A stretch of DNA of 32,000 bases from Trichodesmium erythraeum IMS101. Lineage in GTDB: Bacteria; Cyanobacteriota; Cyanobacteriia; Cyanobacteriales; Microcoleaceae. Shown in pieces: positions 5,070 to 31,950 of this stretch. Below the pieces are notes generated by a model. The model saw only the letters and a list, made by a program, of their open reading frames with translations, was not told the origin of the DNA and made no database searches. The stretch is from positions 870,001 through 902,000 of the forward strand of contig NC_008312.1 of NCBI RefSeq assembly GCF_000014265.1. Direction: 5' to 3'. Made by a program: the position numbers and the translations under genes. How positions within the stretch are numbered: the stretch's first letter is position 1; every line of letters starts with the position of its first letter.

Positions 5070-5082
5070 GTTAAATTAGGTT

Positions 5083-5631: not shown

Positions 5632-5935
5632 TAATTACCTTTGTTTTAGGGAATAGTGAGCAGGTCGGCACTTTGTGTGCAAAATTATTACAGAGAAAAA
5701 AAGGTAGTAGAAAATAAGAAAAATCATTGTAATTTAGTAACTGAATAAATGCTATATCGTAAGCATTCAGCTATGAGTTTCATTCCCAATAGTTAATAAC
5801 TAAAGCTCATCGTTATTGTGACATAAGACTCTCTATCTTGATCAGATTCTATTTACGACTTTTCTGCATAAGCTGTAACTCTAGTAATATTTGATAAATT
5901 AGTATTATTTCTCTTTTTCTTCCTTTGTTTTACCT

Positions 5936-8096: not shown

Positions 8097-8410
8097 AAGT
8101 AATAATGCAGCCATAAAAATTTTTGAGTTACCACAAAAAGTTTCTCATAGAAAAGAGATAATAGGATAAACCAAAGACGACACTAGGGGAAAGTAGACAA
8201 GGCAGTAGAAACAAGGAAAACTGATACCTCATAAAAATTTAGGGATGTATCAAAAAGTCTTTAATGCTGCAAAGTAAAAAACCTACTCTGATAAGATGTT
8301 TCTTACTTTCTACTCCCATAGCTCTAATTGTCAGTCAAATATGAGAATATAAATACTGTAGATTCGTGATTAAACGTTTCTCAATTCAGAAAGCAAATAA
8401 TTCAAAAATT

Positions 8411-9826: not shown

Positions 9827-10081
9827 ATAATTTTCAAGTTTATGATCAACCGCGAAACTTCAATAACTTATGAGATCATACATAGCCATCAGTAACGCCT
9901 AATTTTTTTTTAGATGTTGGTAGAAAAAACAATAGGGTTTCCCCTGATCAAACCTGAAAGATATTAATTAATTTAATATCATATTCCCTTCTACCCTCTG
10001 CCTTCCTTCTATAAGTAAATAAATACTTAACCAGATTAATAATTAAGTATTTTGTCATACGCAAACTTTGGAGATAATTTT

Positions 10082-11080
10082 ATGAAAGCTTTTGAAGTTA
10101 GAGAATTTGGCAACTTAGTTTGTACTGAAAGACCACAACCAGAACCAAAATTTGGAGAAGTTTTAGTGAAAGTTAAAGCTGTCTCCCTTAACTATCGAGA
10201 TATTTTAATGGTTAAAGGTGCTTACAACCCCCATCTACCTCTACCTGTTATTCCATGCTCTGATGGAGTTGGAGAGGTTGTGTCAGTGGGGGAAGGTGTC
10301 ACTAAAGTGAAACCTGGAGATAGAGTTGCTAGCATTTTTATGCAGAAATGGTTATCTGGTAACTTGACTAGAGAAGCAGCCAGGTCAGCTTTGGGTGGTG
10401 AAATTGACGGAATGTTAGCAGAATATGTAATTTTGTCGGAAGATGGAGTGGTAAATATTCCATCTTACTTATCTGATATAGAAGCAGCTACTTTACCTTG
10501 TGCGGCAGTAACAGCTTGGCACGCTTTAATAGAAGCTGGTTTAAAACCAGGGGAAACAGTATTAGTAATGGGAACAGGTGGAGTTTCCTTATTTGCCTTA
10601 CAGTTTGCAGTGATGGCAGGAGCACGAGTCATCGCAACTTCCAGTAGTGATGAAAAATTAGCGCGGGTGAAACAGTTGGGTGCATCTGATATGATTAATT
10701 ATAAATCTGTACCTAAATGGGAAAAACAAGTGTTAGCCTTGACTGAGGGCACTGGAGTTGACTATGTTGTGGAAGTTGGTGGAGCCAAGACTTTGAGTCA
10801 GTCTTTAAAAGCAGTAAAGATAGGAGGTCAAATAAGTTTAATAGGTATATTGGCAGGAGCGCAAGCAGAATTTAATATTTTACCTGCACTCATGAAAGAA
10901 GTTCGGATACATGGTATTTTTGTGGGTTCCCGTCAAATGTTTGAAGCGATGAATAGGGCGATAGATCTTTCTCAGTTGCATCCGGTCTGTGATCGCATTT
11001 TTCCATTTGAGTCAGCTCCAGAAGCACTAAGTTATATGGAAATAGGTTCCCATTTTGGTAAAATTACAATTCAATTTTAG
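10082..11080 (+). CDS. Medium-chain dehydrogenase/reductase, NADPH:quinone-oxidoreductase-like
   Basis: GroES-like N-domain ('GEVLVKVKAVSLNYRD', 'PGDRV') followed by a Rossmann motif 'GTGGVSLFALQFA'. The GHE zinc ligand pattern is absent ('CSDGVGEV'). ATG 10082 is preceded by GGAGA and is preferred over the tracked TTG-frame start at 10052. Confidence 0.85.
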   Translation: MKAFEVREFGNLVCTERPQPEPKFGEVLVKVKAVSLNYRDILMVKGAYNPHLPLPVIPCSDGVGEVVSVGEGVTKVKPGDRVASIFMQKWLSGNLTREAARSALGGEIDGMLAEYVILSEDGVVNIPSYLSDIEAATLPCAAVTAWHALIEAGLKPGETVLVMGTGGVSLFALQFAVMAGARVIATSSSDEKLARVKQLGASDMINYKSVPKWEKQVLALTEGTGVDYVVEVGGAKTLSQSLKAVKIGGQISLIGILAGAQAEFNILPALMKEVRIHGIFVGSRQMFEAMNRAIDLSQLHPVCDRIFPFESAPEALSYMEIGSHFGKITIQF

Positions 11081-11100
11081 TTTTTGATCAGGAGGTAAAG

Positions 11101-12081
11101 ATGAAAGCATTAGTTTTAGAAAAACCGGGAATTCCTGATAGTTTATATATTACAGAAATACCTTTACCACAACCGGCAGCAGGGGAAATACGGGTACAAG
11201 TTCATGCTGTCGGACTAAACCCTGTTGACTACAAACTTGCTGCTGGGGGTTTTTCAACATGGAGTTATCCATTTATTTTGGGGTTAGATGTGGCAGGGGT
11301 TGTGGATGCTGTCGGTACTGATGTGACTGAATGGCAGGTTGGAGAGCAGGTTTATTATCATGGAAATTTATCTAAACCAGGAGCTTATGCAGAATATACT
11401 AATGCTAACGCTTTAGCAGTTGCTCCACTTCCAGAGGGTATTTCTTTTACAAAAGCTGCTGCTATTCCTTGTGCTGGTTTCACTGCTTACCATGCTTTGC
11501 ATCACCGTTTGCATATTCAATCAAAACAAACTATTTTAATTCATGGTGGTGCTGGTGGAGTTGGTAGTTTTGCCCTCCAGTTAGCATCTTTGGCAGGTTT
11601 GGAGGTGATTACAACTTGTTCTCAGAGTAATTTTGATTATGTGCAAAAGTTGGGAGCAAAGCATTTAATTGATTATAAAAATCAGGATGTAGTTATAAGA
11701 GTCAAGGAAATTACTAACGACCGTGGTGTTGATGCTATTTTAGATACGGTTGGTTCGGAAACTGCAACAACAGGTTTGAAAATGTTGGCATTTAATGGTG
11801 GAATTGCTTGTATTGCTGCTTTGCCTGATTTTAGTAATTTCAAATCTTTTAGTCTTGCTGCTTCTATCCATCAAATTGCTTTAGGAGGTGCTTATTTATC
11901 TGGGGATAAAAAAGCGATTCAAGATTTAGGAAAAATGGGGAGAGAAATGGGAGAATTAGTAAGAGAAAAGAAAGTTAGTCCGATGTTAACTGAAGTAATT
12001 AGTTTGGAGGAAATACCGAAAGCATTAAATCGTTTGAAAGGTCGTCATGTAAGAGGAAAAATAGTTGCTGAAATTCGATAA
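11101..12081 (+). CDS. Second medium-chain dehydrogenase/reductase, quinone-oxidoreductase-like paralogue
   Basis: 'GEIRVQVHAVGLNPVDYK', a Rossmann motif 'GGAGGVGSFALQLA', and the C-terminal 'GRHVRGKIV' typical of zeta-crystallin-like MDRs. A perfect AGGAGG sits at 11090-11095, 5 nt before the ATG, and the gene starts 20 nt after the previous stop, so an operon is likely. Confidence 0.85.
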   Translation: MKALVLEKPGIPDSLYITEIPLPQPAAGEIRVQVHAVGLNPVDYKLAAGGFSTWSYPFILGLDVAGVVDAVGTDVTEWQVGEQVYYHGNLSKPGAYAEYTNANALAVAPLPEGISFTKAAAIPCAGFTAYHALHHRLHIQSKQTILIHGGAGGVGSFALQLASLAGLEVITTCSQSNFDYVQKLGAKHLIDYKNQDVVIRVKEITNDRGVDAILDTVGSETATTGLKMLAFNGGIACIAALPDFSNFKSFSLAASIHQIALGGAYLSGDKKAIQDLGKMGREMGELVREKKVSPMLTEVISLEEIPKALNRLKGRHVRGKIVAEIR

Positions 12082-12851: not shown

Positions 12852-13628
12852 TTACTTGCGCTGCAGTCGGGAACCTACAAATAATGCGCCTACAGATAGT
12901 AACCCTAGAGTCATTCCTGGTTCTGGAACTGCTGTTCCATCTGCCTCAGAGGTAGCTCCCCAGATTTCTTGAGAATTCAAGCCAGGAATTTTCCTGACGA
13001 AAGTTCCAACACCAGTTCCTAGATCAAGTTCAAGTTGGTCTTGATTTGCAGTATAGCCAAATAGGGATCCATCATCACCAAAAGCAAGACCATAAACTCC
13101 TCCGTATCCAATATCACCAATTTTTGTGCCTACACCATCTCGTGTAATACTCCATAGTGAATCGCCAACAGAGGTTGCCCAAAAAATATCGCGAGCCGCA
13201 TCAAAAACAATATCCCCACTACTGGAAAAACCTGAGTTGGAAGATATACGCGATGCTCTTCCCGAGCTAGTGTCAATAGAGTAGAAACTGGAACCCCCTG
13301 TGCCATAAAGCTTGCCATCATTGCTAAAACCTAGAGCATTAAGGCTTTTTCCTTTTCCTAAACGACCAACGTAGTTATTTGTTCCTGAATCTAAATCTAC
13401 TGAATATAGTTTATTGAAAGTAATACCGAAGAGTTGCTCCGAAGGCGAGAGAGCAATATCAGTAAAAGTTGGAGTTGATGCTAGCTGAGTGTAAGATCCA
13501 GTTAAGTCATCGAATGCGCCAATCTGATTATCGTTAGTTGACACATAGAAAGTCCCAGCTTGAGCAGAGGTTGTCAGTGCAGATGTAGCTGCGACACTTA
13601 ATAGTAGACAAGACAGTAGTTTTTTCAT
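12852..13628 (-). CDS. PEP-CTERM sorting-domain secreted protein with a beta-propeller-like repeat body
   Basis: N-terminal signal peptide 'MKKLLSCLLLSVAATSALTTSAQA'. The C-terminus 'VPEPGMTLGLLSVGALFVGSRLQRK' shows PEP motif, TM helix and basic tail. Internal repeats have the form 'LFG/LYG..(x)..LYS(I/V)D..(S/T)G'. Confidence 0.8.
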   Translation of the reverse strand: MKKLLSCLLLSVAATSALTTSAQAGTFYVSTNDNQIGAFDDLTGSYTQLASTPTFTDIALSPSEQLFGITFNKLYSVDLDSGTNNYVGRLGKGKSLNALGFSNDGKLYGTGGSSFYSIDTSSGRASRISSNSGFSSSGDIVFDAARDIFWATSVGDSLWSITRDGVGTKIGDIGYGGVYGLAFGDDGSLFGYTANQDQLELDLGTGVGTFVRKIPGLNSQEIWGATSEADGTAVPEPGMTLGLLSVGALFVGSRLQRK

Positions 13629-17760: not shown

Positions 17761-19149
17761 ATGGCAAGTGAGGCAGTTTTTTTTGATTACGGGATATCAA
17801 GACTTAGTGAAATGATAGAATTAGAAAAAAGAGAATTAGAAAAAAGAGAATTAGAAAAAATAGTTCTTGTTTATAAAGAATTATTAGAAAAATTAACAGC
17901 CCCCAATGCTTCCCTATCAGAGCAAGAAGCTTTGAAAATTTTATTGGCTAGAGATGCTATTAGTAATGCTTTATATAATAACCTTGAAAATTGTAATTTG
18001 GCAGTAATAGAAATTAAAAAATTAGACAAAAAACTCAAAGATAATTCTGATAAATTAATTGATTTTATTATATTAGATGAATATCGAAATAATTTCCCGA
18101 GTTTACCGAAAAATTGGTGGTGGTATTTGGATATTGATGTTGAGAAAAAAAGAATCGAATCTCACCCTTGGAATCGTTTTGATGGGTTGATTAGAATTAT
18201 AAGAGTTATGGTTTGGACGGTAAATTTAACTCTTTTGGGAACTTTGGGTAGTCTTTTTTTAGTCAGTGGTTCTGGGTTACAGGGTGTGTTAGCTATTACT
18301 TTTCCTGGTATATTATCATTACTGCAAGCTCAAAGTGAGTTAACGGAAAACGGAAAAAAAGGGTTTGATAAGCTTTTAGAAAAAATTAAACTCCCTCAAC
18401 ATTATCAGGAGGAAGCAAAGCTTGGTTCTACTCTATTAATTACAGGATTATTGTTAACTATTTGGTTAAATTTACCATCTATTTCTAATAGCTACAAACT
18501 GAGGGGTAAAAAATCAGAAGAACAGGAAAATTTAGCGTTAGCAGAAGAGTCTTATCTACAAGCAATTAACTTATATCCTGATAATGTAGATGCTCGTTAT
18601 AAGTTAGCCAAGATTTATGAACAATTACAAGATTTTGATAGTGCTAAGAAACAACATATACTTGCAGCTCAAGCTGGGTTTATAGATGCCTATAATGATC
18701 TTGCTTATTTGTATATTCAGGAAGGTAAGAATGGGGAAGCGATAGATTTGCTTCGAAAAGCTTTGGGGCTTTTAGAGAAAAAAGAAAATCAATTTGAGGA
18801 GTTAATGGATAGCGAAAAGCTGAATTTGAAGACTCAAACATATAATATTTATAAAAATTTAGGATGGGCAAGATTTGAACAAAATCAATATGATGATTCT
18901 GTTTCCTATCTTTTACCGGCAATGGCAATTGCTCAGAACACCAAATATAAGCAATATATTCGGAGCCCAGGAGCAGCTTTTTGTATATACGCTAAAATAT
19001 TGTCATCAACAGATGAGAAATCCTCTGGGACTCAAAAAACTTGGCAACAATGCCGTGAATTGCTTGAATCTCGTTTAGCTGCCGGTGAAAGTATTAATCC
19101 TGAAGAGGATACATGGTTATATGAAGCTAAACAACAATTAAATAATTAA
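17761..19149 (+). CDS. Membrane protein with an N-terminal coiled-coil/ELEKR repeat, about 3 TM helices and C-terminal TPR repeats
   Basis: 462-aa ORF. Hydrophobic segments are 'VMVWTVNLTLLGTLGSLFLV', 'GVLAITFPGILSLL' and 'LGSTLLITGLLLTIWL'. TPR-like units follow ('AEESYLQAINLYPDNVDARYKLAKIYEQLQDFDSAKKQ', 'AYNDLAYLYIQEGKNGEAIDLLRKAL'). Confidence 0.6.
   Translation: MASEAVFFDYGISRLSEMIELEKRELEKRELEKIVLVYKELLEKLTAPNASLSEQEALKILLARDAISNALYNNLENCNLAVIEIKKLDKKLKDNSDKLIDFIILDEYRNNFPSLPKNWWWYLDIDVEKKRIESHPWNRFDGLIRIIRVMVWTVNLTLLGTLGSLFLVSGSGLQGVLAITFPGILSLLQAQSELTENGKKGFDKLLEKIKLPQHYQEEAKLGSTLLITGLLLTIWLNLPSISNSYKLRGKKSEEQENLALAEESYLQAINLYPDNVDARYKLAKIYEQLQDFDSAKKQHILAAQAGFIDAYNDLAYLYIQEGKNGEAIDLLRKALGLLEKKENQFEELMDSEKLNLKTQTYNIYKNLGWARFEQNQYDDSVSYLLPAMAIAQNTKYKQYIRSPGAAFCIYAKILSSTDEKSSGTQKTWQQCRELLESRLAAGESINPEEDTWLYEAKQQLNN
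17818..17862 (+). repeat. 15-nt in-frame tandem repeat x3 (gaattagaaaaaaga; ELEKR)
   Basis: Units at 17818-17832, 17833-17847 and 17848-17862. The first two are identical and the third differs by 1 nt (17861, g->t). Confidence 0.9.
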
Positions 19150-19555: not shown

Positions 19556-20587
19556 ATGGTAAATTTTTCCCTGAGTTTGAAAAGAAAAATCCAAACTGCA
19601 TTGACCTTAACAGTAATGGGATGGGCTATGCCTGCCTTCAGTGCTCCCACTCATATCTTAATTAATGTTGAGGGCAATGTCCAAGTCAAAAAGTCAAAAT
19701 GGAAAGACTTTAATAAAATTGAGGCTGGTATCACTCTCAACAGTCAGGACAAAATTAAAGTAATAGATAATGCTTCGGCTACAATTTATTGTAGTGATAA
19801 AACTAAATGGATAATAGATAAACCAGGAATACATTCGATTTCTGACGGATGTTCAGAAGGAAGCAAAATTTCTTTATTAGATCAAGGTAATAATCATTCC
19901 ACCCGCGGCCCTAAAGCTCCTGCATTTGAAGAAAGTCTAGAAAAACTGCCTTATTTGGTTAGTCCTCGTAAGACTTATGTTTTGAATGCTCCATTGACTA
20001 TTCGTTGGAATGAAGTTCCCGGGGCTACTAACTATAAAGTTAAGGTGGAAGACTGGGAAAGAGAAACGAAGGAATGCCAAATTAGTTATGATGGGGAATT
20101 GGAGCCTGGTGGATATTATCGTATAACTATAGTAGCGAATAATGGGGCTACTTCTCAAGATGAATATGGCAGCGAGGAGAAAAATAATAATTGGTTTATG
20201 GTATTAGAGGATGAGGAAGCAGAGGCTTTACAGGAGGAATTACGGCAGAAGCTAGAGGCGCTCAAGGAGGCTGATAAAACTCAAGAGGAAAAAGATTGGA
20301 GTTTAGCCATGTTTTACCTAGACAAAGAATTAAATTTTGACGTTATTCAGATATTGGAAGGCTTAGTTAAATCTGGAAGTCAAAAATTAGAGGTTTATTA
20401 TTTGTTGGGAGACATATACCAAAAGCTAGGGTTGAATTTAATGGCAAAAGACATTTTTCAGCAAGGGCTGGCTCTGAGTGTGCAGCAGGGGAATAGTGAA
20501 TATAAGGGGAGCATCCAACAGAGATTAGAGTGGCTGGAACCTTCTTTGGGTATTATTAACAAAGCAGGAGAGTTATTGAGGAGGTAA
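19556..20587 (+). CDS. Secreted protein with a FecR-like N-terminal beta domain, a small beta-sandwich, an acidic coiled coil and C-terminal TPR
   Basis: Signal peptide 'KIQTALTLTVMGWAMPAFSA'. 'VEGNVQVKKSKWKDFNKIEAGITLNSQDKIKVIDNASATIYCSD' follows the FecR-type G.V...R....W..A..G..L...D.I pattern. Further elements are 'PLTIRWNEVPGATNYKVKVED', 'EEAEALQEELRQKLEALKEADKTQEEKD' and TPR-like 'YYLLGDIYQKLGLNLMAKDIFQQGLAL'. Domain calls are by eye only. Confidence 0.55.
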   Translation: MVNFSLSLKRKIQTALTLTVMGWAMPAFSAPTHILINVEGNVQVKKSKWKDFNKIEAGITLNSQDKIKVIDNASATIYCSDKTKWIIDKPGIHSISDGCSEGSKISLLDQGNNHSTRGPKAPAFEESLEKLPYLVSPRKTYVLNAPLTIRWNEVPGATNYKVKVEDWERETKECQISYDGELEPGGYYRITIVANNGATSQDEYGSEEKNNNWFMVLEDEEAEALQEELRQKLEALKEADKTQEEKDWSLAMFYLDKELNFDVIQILEGLVKSGSQKLEVYYLLGDIYQKLGLNLMAKDIFQQGLALSVQQGNSEYKGSIQQRLEWLEPSLGIINKAGELLRR

Positions 20588-21275: not shown

Positions 21276-21342
21276 AATACCTATAAATTAAATAAAAAGT
21301 CAATATAATTTTCAACATCTACCACAATAACAAAAGCCTGTG

Positions 21343-24300
21343 ATGAAACCTAATAGCTCAAAACTCTGCACCATAAAAGCTCTGAGTTTAATACTAGGCA
21401 CATTAGCCACCACTCCCGCCAACTCCCAGCCCATAACCCCGGCTAAGGATGGCACCAATACTACTGTTACTCCACAGGGCCAACAATTTAATATTAAAGG
21501 TGGGACTCGCAGTGGTGCTAATGTATTTCACAGCTTTGATAAGTTTAATGTGCACTCTGGTCAAACTGCCAACTTTGTCACGACCCCGGATACTCGCAAT
21601 GTTCTCGGACGAGTTAAGGGAGGCGCTTCTTATATTAATGGTCTTATTCAGGTTCTAGGTAGCAGCTCTAACCTCTTCTTAATGAACCCCGCAGGCATAA
21701 TGTTTGGCCCAAACGCCAGCCTCAATGTACCTGCGTCATTCAGTGTTACTACTGCTACTGGTATTGGTTTTGACCAGAATAATTTCTGGTTCAAGGCTAT
21801 GGGGACTAATGACTATTCAAATTTGCTCGGAAGCCCTAGTGGTTATAGGTTTGATGTTTCTAAACCTGGTTCTATTGTTAATGAAGGAAGTTTAACTTTA
21901 AATTCTGGAGAAAATTTAACTTTATTAGGGGGAACTGTTGTTAATACAGGGGAACTCTCTAGCCCTGGGGGTAATATTACTGTCACTGCTGTCGAAGGTG
22001 GTAGTACCCTGAAAATATCTCAACCAGGACATTTGTTAAGTTTAGAGGTACCCCTAGAGGATGGAGAAAATATTTCTAATATTGATCCTCTATCTTTACC
22101 AGAGTTATTAGCTGGTGGAGGAGATGTCGTTGAGGCTACATCTGTTATTGTTAAAGAGAATGGTGATGTGGTTTTGACCGGTTCAAATACTATGGTGGCT
22201 GAGACTCCGGGAACGGCAACTATTTCGGGAAAGATAGATGTATCAACTACTGCTAGTTCTCTCCAAAATGAGGGGGGTGCTAGTTTTGGAAGCCAAGTTA
22301 ATGTGTGGGGCGATCGTGTGGCTCTTATAGATACAAATATCAAGGCTGATGGCAAAAATGGGGGTGGAACTGTATTAATAGGAGGAGATTTTCAAGGGTT
22401 GGGTATAGTTCCTAATTCTCAGCATACTTTTGTTAATAATAATTCATTTATTTCTGCGGATGCTATCACAAATGGTGATGGAGGTCAAGTTAGAATTTGG
22501 TCGGATGGTATTACTAATTTTGCGGGAAATATTAGTGCTAAAGGCGGCACATCTTCGGGAAATGGAGGGTTGGTTAAAATTGGGGGAAAAGAACAATTAA
22601 TCTTTGATGGAAAGGTGGATGTTACTGCGGCTTTAGGGACTGAAGGTACGATTTTATTGGACCCAGAAAGTGTGACGGTGGGAGAGGATAATTCGGAAGG
22701 TGAAAAGGAAATTGTCGAGGATAATTCGGAGGTTTCTGAGACAGAAAATACTGATAATTATGATGGGGAAATTATTGAGGATAATTCCGAGGTTTCTGAG
22801 ACAGAAAATACTGATAATTCCACAACAAAAAATACTGATAATTTAGAAGATAAAGAAACAGAAAATCCTCTTGATCCTTTTGCTGCTGATGAGAATTCTG
22901 ATGTGACTATTTCGGCGGATAATTTAGGGGAATTATCGGGGAATGTGATTATTGATGCTGATAATGATATTACCATAAATGAAAGGATAGAAACTGATTC
23001 TTCTGTGGAGTTAAAGGCGGGTCGAAGTATTAATATAAATGCGGATATTGATACTAAGAGTGGAAATGGAAATATTGATTTATTGGGTAATAATGATGAG
23101 ATGAATTTGGCTAACCGTTCTGATGGGAAAGCTTCGATAAATCAATTGGATGGAACAATTTTAAATGCTGGAAGTGGTGGAATTAATATTAAGTTGGGAA
23201 GTTTAGGAGAGGTAGGTGATATAAATCTGGGAAATTTAAGGACGACAGGGAAGGTTTTGGTTGATGCAAATGGGGGAAATATTGTTAGAGTTTCTGAGAA
23301 TTCTTTGATAAATGCGGGGAGTGTTTTGTTTAGAACTTCTGGGAATGGAGGTATAGGTTTTGTTGGTGAACCTTTGCGGTTGGATGTGCAGAATTTGGAG
23401 GCGGTTTCTGGTAGTGGTGGGGTGTTTTTTGATGTGGGAAATGTGAATATTGGTGGTGTGAGTGAGGATGTAGATGGTATTGCTACTTTTGGAGGAGATG
23501 TTGATATTAAGAGCGCGGGAAATGTGACTTTAAATGAAACTATTTCTAGCAATGAGGTTGTAGAGAATAATTCTGAGGCGACATCTACAGAAAATACGGA
23601 GGTTGTTGATGGAGGTGGTGGGATAAATATTGAAGCGGCGGGAGATATTGTGGCTACGGGTAGTGGTATTAAAGGTGGTGGGGAAGCTGTTTCTTTGTCT
23701 GGGACTAATATTAGGATAAATGATGAATTTGATGAGACTTCTGGGGATGCGGATGTTAAGTTGTCGGCGACAAATGATATTGTTGTTGAGGATATAGAGG
23801 ATGATGCATTGGAGTTTATGCCTGGGAGGGGGAAGATAGAATTTCGTGCGGATCTGGATGGGGATGGGTTTGGTCTTGTGGAGATGTTGGATAATAAGCC
23901 GGATGTTGGGAGTAACCCTGATGTTTTTGATAATGGGGCGGATACTATTAAGACTAATGGGCGAGGTTTGACTATTGCTGGTGCTGGTCTGGTTTTGGGG
24001 AATGTTGATACTTCTTGGTTGCCTGTTTATTCTGGTGGGGAGTTGTTGAAGGCGATCGATGTGGATGAGGGGGGGCCGATACCTCCGGGAGTGGAGGATA
24101 AAAGTGGATTAATTTCAGAGGAAGATTTTGATTGGTCTTCTTCGGGGGTAGATGATGAAGGTCGTTATTATGGTGGCAAGATAACCATTGACGGCCAATC
24201 TTATAATGTTTATTATGATGGTTATGATGATGAGAAGAAAGTATCGAAATATACTATTAACGGCCAATCTTATTATCAAGCTGGAGTTGAAGGTAAACTT

Positions 24301-27300
24301 TATTATGTGCCTGCTACGAAGACTTGGGAAGATACTGCAACATTTACTTTTACTGTAGATGGTGACTTGGGAACTGTAAAAAATATAGATGTTCGCTTTT
24401 CTGCGGCACATACTTACAATAAGCAGTTAGAGGTTAGTCTGGAATCACCCCAAAAAACGAAAGTACAATTGTTTACAGGTGTTGGTAGTTATGGAGGAGA
24501 GAACTTTCAGGATACTGTGTTGGATGATAATGCTTCTAGAAGTATTGATAATGGCCTTGCTCCGTTTGATGGTACATATCGTCCCCAAGGAAGTTTAGCA
24601 GATTTTAATGGAGAAAATCCTAATGGAACTTGGACTTTGACGGTAAAAGATACGAATATCGAATATGGTAACGGCACTTTATACAGAGCTGGTGAGACTG
24701 CTCACTGGGGAACTACTGCCATAGGTACACAACTGTTGCTGCGTAATCCTCTTGTTCAGATTGCTGCTGGAGGAAATGGTGGAGCGATCAACCTAGAAGC
24801 AACTCATGGTGATATTAGTGTGGGAAATATTCGTAGTTTGAGCGAAACTGCTAATGGGGGAAGAATTGACCTGAATGCTAATAAGGATATTATTTCTGGC
24901 CTGATTAATTCTAGTTCAGAGCGAGGCAATGGAGGTGATGTCAACCTTAATGCGATCTCTGGTGAGATTAGTACTTTTTCATTGGATACTTCATCATTTG
25001 ATGGAGATGGAGGTAGTGTGGAGATGAAGGCGTTAGGGGATATTACTACTAAAGCAGAGATGATGACTGATTCTGGTGAGTTTTTTGTTGATGATTATGG
25101 ATATGTAGAAAATACCAGCGGTGGTGGTGGCAATGCTGGTAATATCAAGATAGAAAGTACAGAAGGTTCAATTGATACTAAAGCAGGTTCAATTTCTGCT
25201 GGTTCAGTTTCAGGAAATGGAGGAGCCATTGATTTGGATGCTGGTGGCGATATCAAGACAGAAAACCTCTATCCCGGGTCCTATTCCAGGTCAGGCAACT
25301 CAGGAAATGGAGGAGCCATTGATTTGGATGCTGGTGGCGATATCAAGACAGAAAACCTCTATCCCGGGTCCTATTCCAGGTCAGGCAACTCAGGAAATGG
25401 AGGAGCCATTGATTTGGATGCTGGTGGCGATATCAAGACAGAAAACCTCTATCCCGGGTCCTATTCCAGGTCAGGCAACTCAGGAAATGGAGGAGCCATT
25501 GATTTGGATGCTGGTGGCGATATCACTACACAATACCTCTATTCCAGCTCCTATTCCGAATCAGGCAACTCAGGAAATGGAGGAGCCATTGATTTGGATG
25601 CTGGTGGCGATATCAAGACAGAAAACCTCTATCCCGGGTCCGATTCCAGCTCAGGCAACTCAGGAAATGGAGGAGCCATTGATTTGGATGCTGGTGGCGA
25701 TATCACTACACAATACCTCTATTCCGGGTCCGATTCCTGGGAAGACAACTCATATTCCGGGTCCTATTCCGGGTCTGGCAAGTCAGGAAATGGAGGAGCC
25801 ATTGATTTGGATGCTGGTGGCGATATCACTACACAAGACCTCGATTCCAGGTCCTTTTCCTATGGAGGCGACTCAGGAAATGGAGGAGACATAACACTGA
25901 ATGCAAAACAAATTAACCCTCCAGAAGACGGAAATGCAGAAAAACTAACAATCTATACATTTTCTGTAGGTAGCACTGACTCTAAAAAAGCTGGAGACGT
26001 TAACATTACCACCAACAATCTCAGTAACACAGATATATTAACACTATCCTCCCACTCTGAATCAGGAAAAGTAACAATAAAAAGTAAGACACAAGAACCA
26101 CTTCAAATCAAAGACTCATCCATTATCACTAGTGAACAAGTAACAGTAGAAATCTTCGGGGAACAAATACAAATAGAAACAGGAAATACCCAATCAGGCG
26201 ACGTCTTCATCAACAGTGACGGCGACCTCAACCTAAACAACGTCACCATAGAAAGCGACACCAAAAGTAACCAAGCCGCCGGAGACGTCAACATCTACAG
26301 CCGCGGCAACATCACACTCGAAAACACCGACATCATCAGCACCACCAACTCCCAAGGCAACGCCGGCCAAATCACCTTAGAAACCAACGAAAACATAGAA
26401 CTCACCAACAACAGCAAAATCCTAGCCAACACAGAAGGAACCGGAAACGCAGGTCAAATAAACATAGAAGCCAACAACCTCATCCTAGACCAAAACACCA
26501 AACTCATCACAGAAACCGCAAGGGCCGGCAACCCCGGAGACATAAAAATCCAAGCCAACACCATAGACATAGGAGAAGGCGCTAAAGCCAGCACCACAGT
26601 CTTAACAGGTTCAACCAGCACCGGAGAAGGAGGCAACATCACCATCAACACAAACAAACTCAACGTCACAGGAAAACTCGGAATATTTGCCGAAACCGAA
26701 GCCAGCAAAAACGCCGGTATCCTTCGCATCTCACCCTACAAAAACAACCCCGACCTAGACATCACCTTCAAAAACGACGGCTTCATCTCCGCCTCCACCT
26801 CATCCACAGGCAACGGAGGCAACATATTCATCAAAGCCCCAGAAAACATCAACATAACAGGCCAAGGGTTCATTGCCACCAAAACATCAGGCACAGGTAA
26901 CGCCGGAATTATCGACATCAAAACCAACAACCTGAGAATATCCAATGGAGTCAAAATCAATGCTTCCACAGAAGACCAAGGCAACGCCGGCGCAATCAAA
27001 ATCAACACCACAGACTTCACCCTAAAAAAAGGAACAAGTCTGACAACAGAAACCAACAGCGCCGGACTAGCCGGAAACATAGAAATAAACACCAAAAAAC
27101 TCACAATAGGACAAAACGCCCAAATAAGTGCCACAGCACTAGAAGGAGCCAGCAACAAAGAAGCAGGCGGCAACATCACCATCAACGCCAATAACCTAGA
27201 CATATCAGGAAAACTAGGAATATTCGCGGAAACCGCAGGAGAAAGCCCCGCAGGCACCCTCACCCTGAACCCATATAAAAACAACCCCAACCTAAATATA

Positions 27301-30300
27301 GAATTCAAACAACAAGGCTTCATTTCTGCTCGCACCACCTCCAGTGGCAACGGAGGCAACATAAATATTCAAGCACCAGAAAAAATCAACATTACAGGAG
27401 ACGGAAAAATATCAGCGGAAACCACAGGGAGTGGAAATGCAGGCACCATCAATATCCAAACAGAAAACCTCAACCTATCAGAGCAAGTAGCCATAAGTGC
27501 CGAAACCAACAGTCAAGGTCAAGCCGGAAACATTGAAATTAACTCCCAAACAGTTACCATAGGAAAAGGCACAGAAATAAGTGCAACAGCCGGAAAAAAA
27601 GCAACAAGCACCGGAGATGGAGGCAACATCACCATCAACACCAACGACCTAGAAATCTCAGGAAAACTAGGAATATTCGCGGAAACCAAAGGAGCATCAA
27701 ACGCCGGAACCTTAACCATCACCCCTTATAAAACCAACCCAGACCTCAATAGCAAAACCGACCCAAACATCAATATTACCTTCACCGACCAAGGCTTCAT
27801 TTCTGCTAGCACCAAATCTCTAGGAAAGGGAGGCGACATCAATATATTAGCACCAGAAAACATAAATATTACAGGAGATGGTCGGATAACAGTTGAAGCC
27901 AAAGGTAGTGGAGACGCAGGCATTATTAACATTGAAACAAAAAACCTGACAATAGCCGAAAACACAAAAATATCAGCATCCACATCCGACAGCGGAAACG
28001 GAGGCGAAATCAAAATTAATTCTAGTGAAACATTCCAACAACAAGGCCGAATATTAACAGAAACCACAGGAACAGGAGATGGAGGCATTATCAACATTGA
28101 AGCAGGAGAAATAACTGCGCCTAACAGCAAGATATCAGCTAAAAGTACCGGGGCGGGCAACGCAGGTACAATAGATATTACTGCCCAAGGAGATATTACC
28201 ACAGGAGTTGTTACCTCCGCCGCCAAAAATAAAAGAGAAACTGCTGACGGAGGTAGCATCAGTATTACCAGTCAACAAGGAAAAATTAACGCCACCCGAG
28301 CAATTCAATCATTTTCAGAAGGAGGCAACGCCGGAAATGTTACCCTCAAAGCCCAAACAGACATAACTGCCAATACCATAAGTTCTCACGGAAAGCAAGA
28401 GGGTGGTCAAATAACCATCAGATCAGAAACCGGAAATATTGACACCAGTAGTGGTAAATTCTTAGCCAACTATTCAGGAGGCGGTGACGCGGGAGACATT
28501 ACAATGGAAGCACCCCAAGGAAATATTACCACAAATAATATCTATTCCTACGCCGACGGAGACGGAGGTCAAATAAACATTAAAGCCGGAAACAATATTA
28601 ATATAGAAGCAAACAGTAATATTATTTCTGCATCAGAGCCACCAAGTGAGGGAAACAGTGACAAACAAGGAAAAGGAGGAGATATTACTCTAGAAGCAGG
28701 CAACAATATTAATACTACAGCAGCTAATATATATTCTGGTGCCAACGAGGGCGACACAGGACAAATTGATATTACTGCAGATAACGCAATAGAAACAGGT
28801 AAAATAGACTTAGCATCAGGTTTTGTCAGACAAGAAACAAAAGTAAACCAAAACCTGGTCCTCATCCCTAAACCAGGAGAACCAGCCACCAAAGGAAAAG
28901 CTGGAGACATCAGACTCCGCAGCAGAAACAGTACAATAGACACCACCGGTGGCACAATAAATTCTCGTTCCCCAGACGGCACCGGAGATATTATTATCAA
29001 TGCCAAAGGAAATATTAGCACAGGGAAATTAGAAGCCAGCGCCCTTAACCCAGACAACCCTACCACAGGTGGAGACGTTAATATTACCAGCGAGCAAGGA
29101 GAAATTAATGCAACTCAAAACATAGAAACCTTCTCAGAAAAAGGTACAGCAGGAGATGTAAATATTACTGCAGCGGGTCATATCAATACAAACACCATTC
29201 GTTCAGATGGAATGGAACAGGGAGGAGATATTAATATTAGGAGCGATAGTGAAAGTAGCATAGATGCAGCAGGAGCATTACAAACATATTCAGATGCAGG
29301 AACAGCAGGAAACGTCAACCTCACATCCCCAGGGAATGTTAATATTAGCGGCATTCGTTCAGAAGGAATGGAGCAGGGAGGTGATATTACACTGAAGAGT
29401 CAAGGAGGAGAAATTAACTCTACAGGCGATATAGACTCCTATTCAAAACAAGGAAAAGGAGGATACGTCAAAGTAGATGCCCCAGAAAGAGTAAATTTAG
29501 CAAATGTATCATCCTACGGCATGACAGAAAGTGGTGACTTAATTACTCAGAGCCAACAAGCAGAAGTTAATACAGGAAATGTCACAACACAAGCTTCAGA
29601 GGGAAAGAGTGGACGTATAGTCATCAACGGAACAGAAGTAGGTACGGGAAATTTAAGTTCTATCGCAGGAACAAGCGCCGGGGAAATTAATGTAGAAGCA
29701 ACAGATGGTTCTATTGCCACCTATGATATAGAAATGACATCAGGTGGTACACTAGGAGCTTTAACACTGAGAGCACCAGAAAATATTAACACAGGAGACA
29801 TTCGTCAAAAAGCAGGAGAGGGAGATGCGAATGCAAATATATTTTCAGGAGGAAACCAAACCACAGGAAATATTAGTCAAGAAGCAGGCAATAATACTAA
29901 CCTAAATCAAAATGCAGGAGAGAATATAAATGCAGGGAATATCGAACAAAATGCTGGTAATAATACTAACCTAAATCAAACTGCAGGAGAGAATATAAAT
30001 GCAGGGAATATCGAACAAAATGCTGGTAATAATACTAACCTAAATCAAACTGCAGGAGAGAATATAAATGTAGGGAATATCGAACAAAATGCGGGTAATA
30101 ATACTAACCTAAATCAAACTGCAGGAGAGAATATAAATACAGGGGATATCGAACAAAATGCGGGTAATAATACTAACCTAAATCAAACTGCAGGAGAGAA
30201 TATAAATACAGGGGATATCGAACAAAATGCGGGTAATAATACTAACCTAAATCAAACTGCAGGAGAGAATATAAATACAGGGGATATCGAACAAAATGCT

Positions 30301-31950
30301 AGTAATAATACTAGTATTTATCAAATTGCAGAAGGAGAGATTAATACACCAGTCATTAATCAAACTTTCGGTAATGAGACTACGCTCAATCAAATATCAG
30401 TAAGAGATGTTAATACACCAGTAATTTCTAATAACAATATACCTAATAATCAAGGACTTAATCAAGAAAATTTCTCTAATAATAACAATAACAATATTGA
30501 GAATAATTCCACTACAAATTCCTCAAACAATAAAAACATTTCATCAACCCTTACCCAGTCTCAAAGGTCTGAATTAATTTCAACTTCTACCCCCAGCAAC
30601 AATAACCAAACAACTAATACAAATACAGCCCAAGAACAAACAGAATCATCTATTAATAGTACAACGGATACCCAAAAAATCTTAAACATAATTGATACCG
30701 TCAATACCAATTCCTTGACAGTTGCGACTGGTTCAGACCAAGTAATAACAATGTTAGAACAAAACCTTACTAACGAATATTCTAATTACTTTGGAACAGA
30801 TTTTAAGGAACAATTTATTAACCAAAAAACACCCCGAGAAATCTTAACCGATATGGCTGCTAAAACAGGAAAAGAATCTGCAGTTGTTTATATTAATGCT
30901 TATCCAGAGGAATTACAAATAATTTTATATACCAAAGATGGTCAACCTATTCTTAAAACTATCCCGGAAGCTAACCGTAAAAAATTAGAGAAAGTAGTTA
31001 TAAATTTCCTCAAATTAACGACAAGTCCTGCCTATCGTGATTTTAATAGTTATCTATCACCAGCAAAACAATTATATGATTGGTTCATTGCACCTATATC
31101 AGCAGAATTAGAAGCAGCAAATATCGATACCTTATTGTTCAGTATGGGTGAAGGTTTACGTATTTTACCAGTGGCAGCATTACATGATGGAAAGCAATTT
31201 TTAATTGAGAAATATAGCCTAAGTTTAATTCCGAGTATCAGCTTAATGGATACAAATTATCGCCCACTTCAAGGTACTCAAGTATTAGCTATGGGAGCTA
31301 GTAAATTTATCAATGAAAAACCTTTACCAGCAGTACCTGTGGAGATAGAAACAATTTCTGAACAGTTATGGGAAGGTAGTAAATTTTTAAACGAAGAATT
31401 TACCAAGAATAATTTGTTAACTCAAAGAAAAAATTATCCCTATCCTATTATTCACTTAGCTACCCATGCAACATTTAATAGAGGAAAACCTAGTAATTCT
31501 TACATTCAGCTATGGGGTAATGAACAAATAAAGTTAGACCAAGTGCGGGAGTTGGGTTGGAGTACCCCATCGGTTGACTTGTTGGTATTGTCTGCTTGTC
31601 GCACTGCTGTAGGAAATAGAGAAGCGGAATTAGGGTTTGCAGGGTTAGCAGTAGCAGCGGGAGTGAAGTCAGCCTTAACGAGCCTTTGGACTGTAAGTGA
31701 TGAAGGGACATTGGCATTAATGACAGAGTTTTATACTCATTTGAATGATGCTAAGATCAAGTCAGAGGCATTAAGACAGGCGCAGTTAGCAATGCTGCAA
31801 GGGCAGGTGCTTATTACAGGTGGGGAGTTGAGGGGAAGCAGCACTCGTGGTGGGGTGGAGCTACCTTCGGCGTTCGCAAATGTAAACAATCAAAATTTAT
31901 CTCATCCTTATTACTGGGCAGGGTTTACTATAGTTGGTAGTCCTTGGTAA
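21343..31950 (+). CDS. Giant TpsA-like exoprotein: signal peptide, TPS/haemagglutination domain, beta-helix shaft, P-domain, repeat arrays and a C-terminal CHAT caspase-like protease domain
   Basis: One uninterrupted 10.6-kb frame (GTG 21340 / ATG 21343). Signal peptide ends at 'TTPANS|Q'. TPS motifs are 'NVFHSFDKFNV' and 'LFLMNPAGIMFGPNASLNV'. G/N/I/T/D-rich beta-helix coils run for about 2,800 aa. The P-domain block is 'DVRFSAAHTYNKQLEVSLESP...NGTWTLTVKD'. The CHAT block is 'IIHLATHATF...LLVLSACRTAVG...HPYYWAGFTIVGSPW'. Confidence 0.9.
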   Translation: MKPNSSKLCTIKALSLILGTLATTPANSQPITPAKDGTNTTVTPQGQQFNIKGGTRSGANVFHSFDKFNVHSGQTANFVTTPDTRNVLGRVKGGASYINGLIQVLGSSSNLFLMNPAGIMFGPNASLNVPASFSVTTATGIGFDQNNFWFKAMGTNDYSNLLGSPSGYRFDVSKPGSIVNEGSLTLNSGENLTLLGGTVVNTGELSSPGGNITVTAVEGGSTLKISQPGHLLSLEVPLEDGENISNIDPLSLPELLAGGGDVVEATSVIVKENGDVVLTGSNTMVAETPGTATISGKIDVSTTASSLQNEGGASFGSQVNVWGDRVALIDTNIKADGKNGGGTVLIGGDFQGLGIVPNSQHTFVNNNSFISADAITNGDGGQVRIWSDGITNFAGNISAKGGTSSGNGGLVKIGGKEQLIFDGKVDVTAALGTEGTILLDPESVTVGEDNSEGEKEIVEDNSEVSETENTDNYDGEIIEDNSEVSETENTDNSTTKNTDNLEDKETENPLDPFAADENSDVTISADNLGELSGNVIIDADNDITINERIETDSSVELKAGRSININADIDTKSGNGNIDLLGNNDEMNLANRSDGKASINQLDGTILNAGSGGINIKLGSLGEVGDINLGNLRTTGKVLVDANGGNIVRVSENSLINAGSVLFRTSGNGGIGFVGEPLRLDVQNLEAVSGSGGVFFDVGNVNIGGVSEDVDGIATFGGDVDIKSAGNVTLNETISSNEVVENNSEATSTENTEVVDGGGGINIEAAGDIVATGSGIKGGGEAVSLSGTNIRINDEFDETSGDADVKLSATNDIVVEDIEDDALEFMPGRGKIEFRADLDGDGFGLVEMLDNKPDVGSNPDVFDNGADTIKTNGRGLTIAGAGLVLGNVDTSWLPVYSGGELLKAIDVDEGGPIPPGVEDKSGLISEEDFDWSSSGVDDEGRYYGGKITIDGQSYNVYYDGYDDEKKVSKYTINGQSYYQAGVEGKLYYVPATKTWEDTATFTFTVDGDLGTVKNIDVRFSAAHTYNKQLEVSLESPQKTKVQLFTGVGSYGGENFQDTVLDDNASRSIDNGLAPFDGTYRPQGSLADFNGENPNGTWTLTVKDTNIEYGNGTLYRAGETAHWGTTAIGTQLLLRNPLVQIAAGGNGGAINLEATHGDISVGNIRSLSETANGGRIDLNANKDIISGLINSSSERGNGGDVNLNAISGEISTFSLDTSSFDGDGGSVEMKALGDITTKAEMMTDSGEFFVDDYGYVENTSGGGGNAGNIKIESTEGSIDTKAGSISAGSVSGNGGAIDLDAGGDIKTENLYPGSYSRSGNSGNGGAIDLDAGGDIKTENLYPGSYSRSGNSGNGGAIDLDAGGDIKTENLYPGSYSRSGNSGNGGAIDLDAGGDITTQYLYSSSYSESGNSGNGGAIDLDAGGDIKTENLYPGSDSSSGNSGNGGAIDLDAGGDITTQYLYSGSDSWEDNSYSGSYSGSGKSGNGGAIDLDAGGDITTQDLDSRSFSYGGDSGNGGDITLNAKQINPPEDGNAEKLTIYTFSVGSTDSKKAGDVNITTNNLSNTDILTLSSHSESGKVTIKSKTQEPLQIKDSSIITSEQVTVEIFGEQIQIETGNTQSGDVFINSDGDLNLNNVTIESDTKSNQAAGDVNIYSRGNITLENTDIISTTNSQGNAGQITLETNENIELTNNSKILANTEGTGNAGQINIEANNLILDQNTKLITETARAGNPGDIKIQANTIDIGEGAKASTTVLTGSTSTGEGGNITINTNKLNVTGKLGIFAETEASKNAGILRISPYKNNPDLDITFKNDGFISASTSSTGNGGNIFIKAPENINITGQGFIATKTSGTGNAGIIDIKTNNLRISNGVKINASTEDQGNAGAIKINTTDFTLKKGTSLTTETNSAGLAGNIEINTKKLTIGQNAQISATALEGASNKEAGGNITINANNLDISGKLGIFAETAGESPAGTLTLNPYKNNPNLNIEFKQQGFISARTTSSGNGGNINIQAPEKINITGDGKISAETTGSGNAGTINIQTENLNLSEQVAISAETNSQGQAGNIEINSQTVTIGKGTEISATAGKKATSTGDGGNITINTNDLEISGKLGIFAETKGASNAGTLTITPYKTNPDLNSKTDPNINITFTDQGFISASTKSLGKGGDINILAPENINITGDGRITVEAKGSGDAGIINIETKNLTIAENTKISASTSDSGNGGEIKINSSETFQQQGRILTETTGTGDGGIINIEAGEITAPNSKISAKSTGAGNAGTIDITAQGDITTGVVTSAAKNKRETADGGSISITSQQGKINATRAIQSFSEGGNAGNVTLKAQTDITANTISSHGKQEGGQITIRSETGNIDTSSGKFLANYSGGGDAGDITMEAPQGNITTNNIYSYADGDGGQINIKAGNNINIEANSNIISASEPPSEGNSDKQGKGGDITLEAGNNINTTAANIYSGANEGDTGQIDITADNAIETGKIDLASGFVRQETKVNQNLVLIPKPGEPATKGKAGDIRLRSRNSTIDTTGGTINSRSPDGTGDIIINAKGNISTGKLEASALNPDNPTTGGDVNITSEQGEINATQNIETFSEKGTAGDVNITAAGHINTNTIRSDGMEQGGDINIRSDSESSIDAAGALQTYSDAGTAGNVNLTSPGNVNISGIRSEGMEQGGDITLKSQGGEINSTGDIDSYSKQGKGGYVKVDAPERVNLANVSSYGMTESGDLITQSQQAEVNTGNVTTQASEGKSGRIVINGTEVGTGNLSSIAGTSAGEINVEATDGSIATYDIEMTSGGTLGALTLRAPENINTGDIRQKAGEGDANANIFSGGNQTTGNISQEAGNNTNLNQNAGENINAGNIEQNAGNNTNLNQTAGENINAGNIEQNAGNNTNLNQTAGENINVGNIEQNAGNNTNLNQTAGENINTGDIEQNAGNNTNLNQTAGENINTGDIEQNAGNNTNLNQTAGENINTGDIEQNASNNTSIYQIAEGEINTPVINQTFGNETTLNQISVRDVNTPVISNNNIPNNQGLNQENFSNNNNNNIENNSTTNSSNNKNISSTLTQSQRSELISTSTPSNNNQTTNTNTAQEQTESSINSTTDTQKILNIIDTVNTNSLTVATGSDQVITMLEQNLTNEYSNYFGTDFKEQFINQKTPREILTDMAAKTGKESAVVYINAYPEELQIILYTKDGQPILKTIPEANRKKLEKVVINFLKLTTSPAYRDFNSYLSPAKQLYDWFIAPISAELEAANIDTLLFSMGEGLRILPVAALHDGKQFLIEKYSLSLIPSISLMDTNYRPLQGTQVLAMGASKFINEKPLPAVPVEIETISEQLWEGSKFLNEEFTKNNLLTQRKNYPYPIIHLATHATFNRGKPSNSYIQLWGNEQIKLDQVRELGWSTPSVDLLVLSACRTAVGNREAELGFAGLAVAAGVKSALTSLWTVSDEGTLALMTEFYTHLNDAKIKSEALRQAQLAMLQGQVLITGGELRGSSTRGGVELPSAFANVNNQNLSHPYYWAGFTIVGSPW
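21427..22210 (+). other. TPS (two-partner secretion / filamentous haemagglutinin N-terminal) domain
   Basis: The conserved FHSF..FNV block (aa 61-71) and an NPNGI-type motif, here NPAGI (aa 116-120, nt 21685-21699), in the spacing usual for TpsA proteins. The C-terminal boundary is approximate. Confidence 0.8.
22684..22850 (+). repeat. 60-nt acidic tandem repeat, about 2.5 copies (E-I-[VI]-EDNSEVSETENTDN)
   Basis: 43-nt cores at 22717-22759 and 22777-22819 differ by 1 nt, flanked by partial copies. A related acidic motif 'ENNSEATSTENTE' recurs at about 23560-23600. Confidence 0.85.
24334..24745 (+). other. Proprotein-convertase-type P-domain with no adjacent subtilisin domain
   Basis: 'TFTFTVDGDLGTVKNIDVRFSAAHTYNKQLEVSLESPQKTKVQLF...FQDTVLDDNASRSIDNGLAPFDGTYRPQGSLADFNGENPNGTWTLTVKDTNIEYGNG' follows the P_proprotein pattern (hallmarks 'D..A...i....aPf.G.yrP...L..F.G....G.W.L.v.D'). 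No D/H/S subtilase motifs occur upstream. Confidence 0.7.
25211..25903 (+). repeat. 90-nt (30-aa) in-frame tandem array, about 8 units (NSGNGGAIDLDAGGDIKTENLYPGSYSRSG)
   Basis: Units start at 25211, 25301, 25391, 25481, 25571, 25661, 25784 and 25874. The first three (25211-25480, 270 nt) are identical at every base. The sixth unit carries a 33-nt insertion and the last is partial. Confidence 0.95.
26443..28200 (+). repeat. Three full copies and one partial copy of a 450-540-nt super-repeat, each of about 6-7 beta-helix coils
   Basis: Unit starts at 26443 (GNAGQINIEANN), 26896 (GNAGIIDIKTNN), 27433 (GNAGTINIQTEN) and 27910 (GDAGIINIETKN). The shared internal landmark 'GGNITIN.N.L..(S/T)GKLGIFAET...PYK.NP.L.I.F...GFISA.T.S.G.GG.I.I.APE.INITG.G' appears in all three full units. 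Confidence 0.8.
29884..30366 (+). repeat. 69-nt (23-aa) in-frame tandem array, 6 good units plus 1 degenerate unit (AGNNTNLNQTAGENIN.G.IEQN)
   Basis: Unit starts at 29884, 29953, 30022, 30091, 30160, 30229 and 30298 (degenerate). Units 4-6 (30091-30297, 207 nt) are identical, and units 2 and 3 differ by 1 nt. Confidence 0.95.
30750..31947 (+). other. CHAT domain (clan CD caspase-like cysteine protease fold)
   Basis: Predicted His in 'PIIHLATHATF' (H3376, nt 31465-31467) and Cys in 'DLLVLSACRTAVG' (C3420, nt 31597-31599). The CHAT-typical tail 'LSHPYYWAGFTIVGSPW' lies at the exact C-terminus. The N-terminal boundary is approximate. Confidence 0.85.

Follow-up and report, generated by a model that had tools for sequence, protein, structure and literature searches.

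A giant TpsA-type exoprotein of Trichodesmium erythraeum retains a single mature cysteine, at the predicted nucleophile of a C-terminal CHAT protease module

What leaves a protein of more than 3,500 residues with one cysteine beyond its signal-peptide-like N-terminus, and why does that cysteine stand where a thiol protease would need it? The question is raised by a tpsA-like gene of Trichodesmium erythraeum IMS101, which lies on the forward strand of the 32,000-nucleotide stretch of DNA analysed here (NC_008312.1, positions 870,001 to 902,000; hereafter the window, numbered from its first letter). Its translation of 3,536 residues contains cysteine only at residues 10 and 3420, the latter encoded by an in-frame TGT at 31597-31599. 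This bears out a sequence-only reading of the same DNA, and the in-frame count of TGT and TGC codons over 21340-31950, which that reading had set as a test, found these two alone. The protein is best classed as a TpsA exoprotein of two-partner secretion (TPS) whose cargo is a caspase-like CHAT protease. We consider it likely that this type Vb exoprotein has been purged of cysteine for threading through a TpsB transporter, with the nucleophile spared, and that its CHAT module is a probably active, exported protease. Judged from sequence, activity of the CHAT protease appears well supported, and export of the whole protein through TpsB is plausible. The cysteine pattern itself is genuine, has strong statistical backing and runs through the family; it is neat, but known biology would have led one to expect it. 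The features that carry the argument are the following.

21340-31950, + strand: tpsA-like gene for a TPS-shaft-linker-CHAT exoprotein of 3,536 residues (list of open reading frames, translation, Pfam matches to TPS, P_proprotein and CHAT)
21340-21426, + strand: signal-peptide-like N-terminus (residues 1-29), inferred cleavage near the PANS/QP junction (hydropathy scan; junction kept in homologues)
21367-21369, + strand: codon TGC of Cys10, inside the signal-peptide-like hydrophobic core (in-frame translation)
30730-31947, + strand: CHAT protease module, residues 3131-3536 (Pfam PF12770, E 1.9e-69; AlphaFold2 model; Foldseek)
31453-31455, + strand: codon of His3372, also invariant (homologue alignment)
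31465-31467, + strand: codon CAT of His3376, predicted catalytic histidine in IIHLATHA (invariance in profile A1, 148/148; strand at model residues 240-249)
31597-31599, + strand: codon TGT of Cys3420, predicted nucleophile in LLVLSACRTAVG and sole cysteine of the mature protein (translation; invariance; end of the strand at model residues 284-292)

The open reading frame starts with GTG at 21340 (an alternative ATG lies at 21343) and ends with the TAA stop codon at 31948-31950. Cys10 stands at the start of the hydrophobic core (residues 8-20, LCTIKALSLILGT) of an N-terminus that reads MKPNSSKLCTIKALSLILGTLATTPANS up to the likely cleavage point, where QP follows. Homologues keep the junction PANSQPITPA-DGT, and their N-terminal cysteines, where present, all precede the equivalent of window residue 29. 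The claim that Cys10 lies inside a cleaved signal peptide thus stands as far as the signal-peptide-like core is concerned; cleavage near PANS/QP, which would remove Cys10, is inferred from hydropathy and the conserved junction. A lipobox at Cys10 was rejected, as SKLC misfits the pattern [LVI][ASTVI][GAS]C and the cysteine precedes the hydrophobic core. The depletion is extreme by each of three yardsticks. Cysteine makes up 0.95% of the other 13 open reading frames of the window (5,032 residues), so that 34 would be expected in this protein where 2 are observed (P(<=2) = 1.2e-12), in keeping with the rarity that had been proposed from the sequence. The gene's own codon-position base frequencies predict 51.5 TGT or TGC codons (Poisson P = 6e-20), and the other five reading frames contain 30-208 such triplets each; nucleotide composition is therefore rejected as the source of the depletion. 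The G+C content of the window is 37%. Other rare residues are less purged, with 15 histidines, 16 tryptophans and 23 methionines.

The pattern extends across the family. We analysed 147 of the best 150 among 66,688 CHAT cluster representatives (50%-identity clusters, E <= 1e-3; 4,620 reach E <= 1e-30), 99 of those analysed with a TPS domain, and separately 46 TPS-CHAT open reading frames from species genomes, with 743-3,718 mature residues. These comparisons cover a few clades and carry no correction for phylogeny, many database entries are fragments, and the labels 'Sec-only' and 'cytoplasmic-type' are deduced from N-termini and domain architecture. Exactly one mature cysteine, always about 115-118 residues from the C-terminus, is present in 37 of the 46 genomic sequences, and non-catalytic cysteines amount to 0.02% of their 95,915 mature residues. 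A single mature cysteine is likewise present in 69 of the 99 TPS-positive representatives, so the single-cysteine pattern expected of homologues is confirmed. The CHAT domain is at the extreme C-terminus in all 147 representatives. Over the last 300 residues of all 148 sequences (the window protein included), cysteine occurs in two columns only, that of the predicted nucleophile (148/148) and that of window position 3268 (10/148).

Where the 99 TPS-positive representatives do carry extra cysteines, most are closely paired: 48 of the 64 stand in pairs no more than 11 residues apart. A further 7 are lone cysteines that recur in a single column, some 268 residues before the C-terminus. Proteins of type V secretion are low in cysteine, and any cysteines stand just a few residues from each other (PMC8151025, PMC9769942); the close pairing, as read from the sequences, matches this rule. 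The shafts of two Nostoc TPS-CHAT proteins (L074:2249-11149 and L078:2405-11152) contain two pairs of the form CxxxxC or CxxxxxC, such as those at 2382/2377 and 922/916 residues from the C-terminus, and close pairs of this kind recur in many cluster representatives. Such pairs are consistent with small disulfide loops that tolerate translocation.

Two groups of relatives serve as a comparison. Sec-only CHAT paralogues (about 470 residues, with a signal-peptide-like N-terminus and no TPS domain) have two mature cysteines in 19 of 21 cases, the second at either 266 or 235 residues from the C-terminus. This short family, of about 445-527 residues, comprises a subset of representatives P0074-P0120 and the genomic genes L052:9701-11149 and L056:1401-2819. 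Its 266 position corresponds to Ser3268 of the window protein, in the strand at model residues 132-139 (...LLFSM), the end of which may lie near the active site of a caspase fold; the second cysteine could be a disulfide latch on the nucleophile. A TPR-CHAT protein of cytoplasmic-type architecture adjoins a TPS-family locus in Microcoleus (L061) and has 7 cysteines in its 319-residue CHAT domain. In a window of 140 residues round the nucleophile, 85 members of its clade average 3.07 cysteines (range 1-5), against exactly one in 144 of 144 TPS-type representatives and in all 118 closer homologues. The proposed contrast with cytoplasmic CHAT proteins holds, with the qualification that the clade compared is that of the Microcoleus TPR-CHAT protein. 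Taken together, one cysteine in TPS-fused, two in Sec-only and three or more in cytoplasmic-type proteins would amount to a natural experiment in support of the type V rule against distant cysteine pairs.

The CHAT module is predicted with high confidence to have the CHAT/separase/Csx29 fold. Its AlphaFold2 model (residues 3131-3536, built with 32 homologues) scores 91.8 in the predicted local distance difference test and 0.93 in predicted template-modelling (TM) score. Foldseek against the PDB gives as best match the Csx29/TPR-CHAT protease of the type III-E CRISPR 'Craspase' (E 1e-15, query-normalised TM-score 0.60), followed by separase (4e-9), SAVED-CHAT and the anti-sigma factor DdvA, through its periplasmic TPR-CHAT part (1e-7), and lower down by gingipain RgpB (1e-4) and, weakly, caspase-1 and caspase-11 (about 3e-3). 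The Pfam CHAT match covers residues 3241-3534 (31060-31941) and profile positions 3-289 of 289. Within the fold, Cys3420 lies in LVLSACRTA, at the end of a predicted beta-strand, and His3376 in IIHLATHATF, in the preceding core strand, 44 residues before the cysteine. In TPR-CHAT the dyad is H585/C627, with a spacing of 42 (PMC9729208), and in DdvA H862/C907, with a spacing of 45 (PMC11506125), the residues occupying strand-end or loop positions in both, as here. His3372, His3376, Ser3418 and Cys3420 are invariant in 148 of 148 sequences, as are the flanking motifs HLATH[AG] and LSAC[RQK]TA. Since Cys3420 is the only thiol of the mature protein, it must be the nucleophile if the domain is a cysteine protease. 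His3376 and Cys3420 are very likely the catalytic dyad on these grounds.

The assignment has one weakness. Sequence searches with the CHAT region, the A1 profile and a 102-residue core (phmmer, hmmsearch) found no CHAT match among PDB sequences, a weak match to complex I (E 0.3) being noise, and hhalign of A1 against an approximate caspase-3 query sequence gave a probability of 0.1% and no meaningful alignment. What identifies the dyad is therefore its motif, its invariance, its place in the secondary structure, the spacing of the two residues and elimination; the failure of these searches to reach a solved CHAT protease weighs against the proposal of an active protease to that extent.

Could the module be a catalytically dead binding or scaffold domain, with Cys3420 kept for structure? 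In favour of this, it is common for CHAT proteases to be kept inactive at rest (PMC9729208, PMC11506125), and one close relative has lost the cysteine and still keeps 62% identity to the CHAT module of the window protein. This relative (L040, Dapis sp. BLCC M126, 4889-11179) is a TIR-TIR-WD40-CHAT fusion of 2,097 residues, in which LVLAGTRTA replaces the nucleophile motif, the histidine motif is kept and 10 cysteines occur elsewhere. It is the sole loss of the SAC motif, present in 86 of 87 CHAT open reading frames from 78 genomic loci, and it falls in a cytoplasmic, defence-like architecture. A dead domain is nevertheless very improbable: the dyad and its flanking motifs are invariant in a family that otherwise eliminates cysteine, and a structural role is unlikely for a lone, unpaired cysteine at the canonical nucleophile position. 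The view of an active protease, and not a decayed one, therefore appears well supported, and the aligned cysteine is conserved in homologues, as the sequence-only reading required.

The remaining parts of the protein are as follows.

21448-22083, + strand: TPS secretion domain, residues 37-248, the TpsB-recognition module (Pfam PF05860, E 3.6e-36)
24379-24681, + strand: proprotein-convertase P-domain-like insert in the shaft, residues 1014-1114 (Pfam PF01483, E 9.3e-8, 32.5 bits, cut-off 21)
25210-25861, + strand: near-identical 90-nucleotide (30-residue) tandem repeats in the shaft, about 6 copies, 93% matches (Tandem Repeats Finder; translation)
29890-30407, + strand: 69-nucleotide (23-residue) tandem repeats, about 6 copies with 97% matches, at the shaft's distal end (Tandem Repeats Finder)
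30340-30729, + strand: Asn/Ser/Thr-rich low-complexity linker from shaft to CHAT module, residues 3001-3130 (translation; composition without C, H, M, W and Y)

The shaft comprises roughly 2,700 residues of G/N/T/S/I-rich repeat sequence and is predicted to be beta-helical; a Tyr/Asp/Gly-rich segment (residues 900-1000) flanks its P-domain-like insert. Near-identical repeat arrays within the gene point to recent expansion or contraction, and because of such arrays most database homologues are assembly fragments broken in the repeats. Judged from the N-termini of these fragments, the linkers of homologues are Pro/Thr/Gln-rich equivalents.

This composition bears on a second explanation, that paucity of cysteine is generic to proteins that are extracellular or made of low-complexity repeats and face oxidising conditions, and says nothing specific about TpsB, the lone cysteine surviving because it is catalytic. 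G/N/T/S/I-rich repeats of the predicted beta-helix, poor also in histidine, methionine and tryptophan, account for about 85% of the protein. Another exported protein of the window, the PEP-CTERM open reading frame at 12852-13628, has its single cysteine at residue 6, within a signal-peptide-like N-terminus. A catalytic cysteine with no other beside it is typical of thiol enzymes outside the cytoplasm, sortases and L,D-transpeptidases for instance, so the lone cysteine is by itself no proof of passage through the outer membrane. We nonetheless consider this explanation unlikely. Base composition predicts far more cysteine codons than the two observed, the globular TPS, P-domain and CHAT modules (about 800 residues) are purged as well as the repeats, the close pairing of extra cysteines is the signature of type V passengers (PMC8151025, PMC9769942), and the Sec-only paralogues tolerate a distant second cysteine.

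Purging for secretion through TpsB, the explanation that we prefer, would proceed as follows. Sec would export the protein and remove the signal peptide, and Cys10 with it. The TPS domain would then engage an unlinked TpsB, the repeat shaft would be threaded out and fold outside the cell, and the linker and CHAT module would follow as the last part of the passenger. Since such substrates cross the periplasm and the TpsB barrel as unfolded chains, selection would remove cysteines able to form long-range disulfides in the periplasmic intermediate, here every cysteine except the nucleophile. The retained dyad would in turn imply an active protease working outside the cytoplasm, at the cell surface or in the milieu. 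Its substrate could be the exoprotein itself, by cleavage in the disordered linker, or surface or neighbour-cell proteins.

Several findings weigh against this route, most of them on the transporter. No open reading frame of the window, including the 21 kb upstream of the gene, matches ShlB or POTRA_2 in Pfam, and tblastn of the window with bona fide cyanobacterial TpsB found nothing; among the upstream genes are two for TPR proteins and others for a sodium:solute symporter, dehydrogenases and a GlmU-like enzyme. The 10 kb downstream of the gene in L079, a contig from a T. erythraeum metagenome-assembled genome whose CHAT end is 98% identical, contain no tpsB, the genes there being housekeeping ones (lipoate ligase, glutamine synthetase, a phycobilisome protein). 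Most homologous loci also lack tpsB within 10 kb. TpsB homologues are abundant in filamentous cyanobacteria, with 2,190 matches (see also PMC4104836), and no Trichodesmium-labelled protein is among the best 120 of them. The signal peptide, moreover, was judged by hydropathy alone, and the second CHAT-module cysteine of some TPS-fused homologues (the 10 of 148) means that the constraint is not absolute.

A partner is found at some loci. In Oscillatoria (L043-L045) a transporter with ShlB and POTRA_2 domains adjoins tandem TPS-CHAT genes, and in Nostoc another lies 3.4 kb from a TPS-CHAT gene of 2,905 residues. The Nostoc locus (L083/L084:1-11767; Nostoc sp. 'Peltigera membranacea cyanobiont' 213 and the Nostoc-type GCA_002245975.1) has tpsB on one strand and, on the opposite strand, a gene for a COP23-domain protein, two for trypsin-like serine proteases and the TPS-CHAT gene itself; it may be a multi-protease secretion locus. 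In Microcoleus vaginatus and Kamptonema formosum (L080-L082:6700-12400) a tpsB without a TpsA gene is conserved beside genes for DUF928 and transglutaminase-core proteins, which suggests another TpsB-associated module. Other TpsB-sized neighbours at homologous loci were rejected as TpsB, among them histidine kinases, pentapeptide-repeat proteins, adenylate cyclases and an OprB porin.

A further objection is that characterised TpsA proteins, HMW1 and HxuA among them, can hold their C-terminal region in the periplasm (PMC5422565, PMC8151025). The CHAT module might likewise stay folded there, as a maturation or release protease acting on the linker, or as a plug tethering the shaft. The long disordered linker before the module would allow such retention, and a thiol with no partner to pair with would be stable in that compartment. 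The C-terminal regions of FhaB and CdiA are also held there. The structural match to DdvA adds to this possibility, DdvA being a periplasmic TPR-CHAT protein with an intact dyad that functions in that compartment (PMC11506125). We regard periplasmic retention as an alternative to be taken seriously, if not a likely one. The anchors of HMW1 and HxuA need a disulfide loop (PMC5422565), which is impossible in the window protein. Sec-only paralogues, presumed periplasmic, keep a second cysteine in 19 of 21 cases, against 10 of 148 for TPS-fused proteins, which suggests an extra constraint on the latter. The contrast leans against retention, and neither point is decisive. The claim that the whole protein, CHAT module included, crosses the envelope by the TpsB route accordingly remains plausible, drawing on the family-wide purge, the close cysteine pairs, the Sec-only contrast and the tpsB genes of Oscillatoria and Nostoc; what stands in its way is the lack of a nearby tpsB and the precedent of periplasmic TpsA C-termini.

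Compared with known systems, the window protein resembles the TpsA exoproteins FHA/FhaB, HMW1, ShlA and CdiA in its N-terminal TPS domain after a Sec signal peptide, its several thousand residues of repeats (here predicted to be beta-helical), its C-terminal functional module, its very low cysteine content, with the rare extra cysteines of homologues closely paired, and the adjacent tpsB at some homologous loci (Oscillatoria, Nostoc). It differs from them in ending in a CHAT protease instead of an adhesin tip, pore-former or nuclease toxin, in the absence of an adjacent tpsB or immunity-like gene, and in belonging to a family with many paralogues per genome in a free-living marine cyanobacterium. 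Unlike HMW1 and HxuA, it lacks a C-terminal disulfide anchor. Nor does it look like a CdiA: its C-terminal module is not polymorphic but keeps 50-98% identity between genera, the genes downstream in L079 are housekeeping ones, and no cdiB or tpsB is adjacent, VENN and pretoxin motifs not having been specifically searched for.

A thiol protease can be TPS cargo, as the architecture of IbpA indicates, a TpsA of Histophilus somni with a C-terminal YopT-like cysteine protease domain (PMC3173180). That domain has the papain fold of clan CA, and its targets in animal cells are Rho GTPases of the host, unlike the caspase-fold CHAT protease (clan CD-like) of the window protein, which also lacks the Fic domains of IbpA. 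PfhB2 and LspA share the layout of IbpA. A different model, for a CHAT module that releases parts of its exoprotein, is the cysteine protease domain (CPD, clan CD) of MARTX and large clostridial toxins, an autoprocessing protease embedded in a very large secreted repeat protein, which can cleave its own carrier. The CPD differs in belonging to family C80, in using the type I secretion route or none, in being activated by inositol hexakisphosphate inside eukaryotic cells and in being internal rather than C-terminal.

Among CHAT proteases, the module shares its fold (Foldseek E 1e-15 to 1e-7) and a similar spacing of its predicted His-Cys dyad with Csx29/TPR-CHAT, separase, SAVED-CHAT and DdvA, the last of which is an example of a CHAT domain located outside the cytoplasm. 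It differs from these proteases in lacking a TPR arm and any CRISPR, CBASS or sigma-factor context, in being fused to a secretion substrate and in having only 10-16% sequence identity to them. It also keeps exactly one cysteine, like the rest of the TPS-CHAT family, where the cytoplasmic-type CHAT domains sampled have a mean of 3 per 140 residues.

That type V passengers are poor in cysteine is a textbook principle, so the conceptual advance is modest. The TPS-CHAT architecture is already annotated in databases, and a Trichodesmium preprint mentions large repeat-rich 'CHAT' and 'haemagglutination activity domain' proteins in passing (10.1101/2022.04.20.488952). Our literature search found no paper joining the CHAT domain with two-partner secretion or filamentous haemagglutinin, and there appears to be no characterised member of the family. 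What the analysis adds is that giant exoproteins of cyanobacteria, forming a very large family, retain exactly one cysteine, which stands where a caspase-like protease has its nucleophile. It thereby predicts an extracytoplasmic thiol-dependent protease in ecologically important nitrogen fixers such as Trichodesmium, Okeania and Dapis, which abound in such proteins, still unstudied. The single cysteine would be a handy target for activity-based probes and site-specific labelling.

A bolder proposal, which we hold to be rather improbable, is that TPS-CHAT proteins are massively expanded, surface-delivered caspase-like proteases of filamentous cyanobacteria, redox-gated by the lone thiol and mediating cell-cell processes or defence. 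Outside the cell, oxidised or latched, they would then have no activity, and they would gain it on meeting a reducing compartment or partner. Their roles would lie in interactions among kin or within colonies, in programmed cell death, or in warding off grazers and epibionts. The second cysteine that recurs near the active site of Sec-only paralogues would be the disulfide latch, and the proposal would bear on the unexplained 'caspase-like activity' of Trichodesmium blooms.

The nearest relatives of the window protein are CHAT proteins of Trichodesmium (98% identity, in a fragment from the T. erythraeum metagenome-assembled genome), Okeania, Dapis and Hydrocoleum. TPS-CHAT genes are often tandemly duplicated (L001, L003, L028, L029, L044, L045) and numerous within a genome, with at least 4 on one 825-kb contig of Okeania (L008/L011/L035/L041) and many in Dapis. 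As a set of paralogues, the family has undergone strong expansion in Microcoleaceae. An NCBIfam search with the full 3,536-residue protein gave no match. Directly upstream of the giant gene and on the same strand lie two TPR-repeat open reading frames (17761-19149 and 19556-20587, + strand), neighbours that do not recur at homologous loci; the second has a signal-peptide-like N-terminus (MVNFSLSLKRKIQTALTLTVMGWAMPAFSAP). In PADLOC the CHAT core (30730-31947) weakly matches the BovA model (E 3.8e-8, positions 510-670 of 711), which probably reflects shared CHAT homology with a candidate defence protein.

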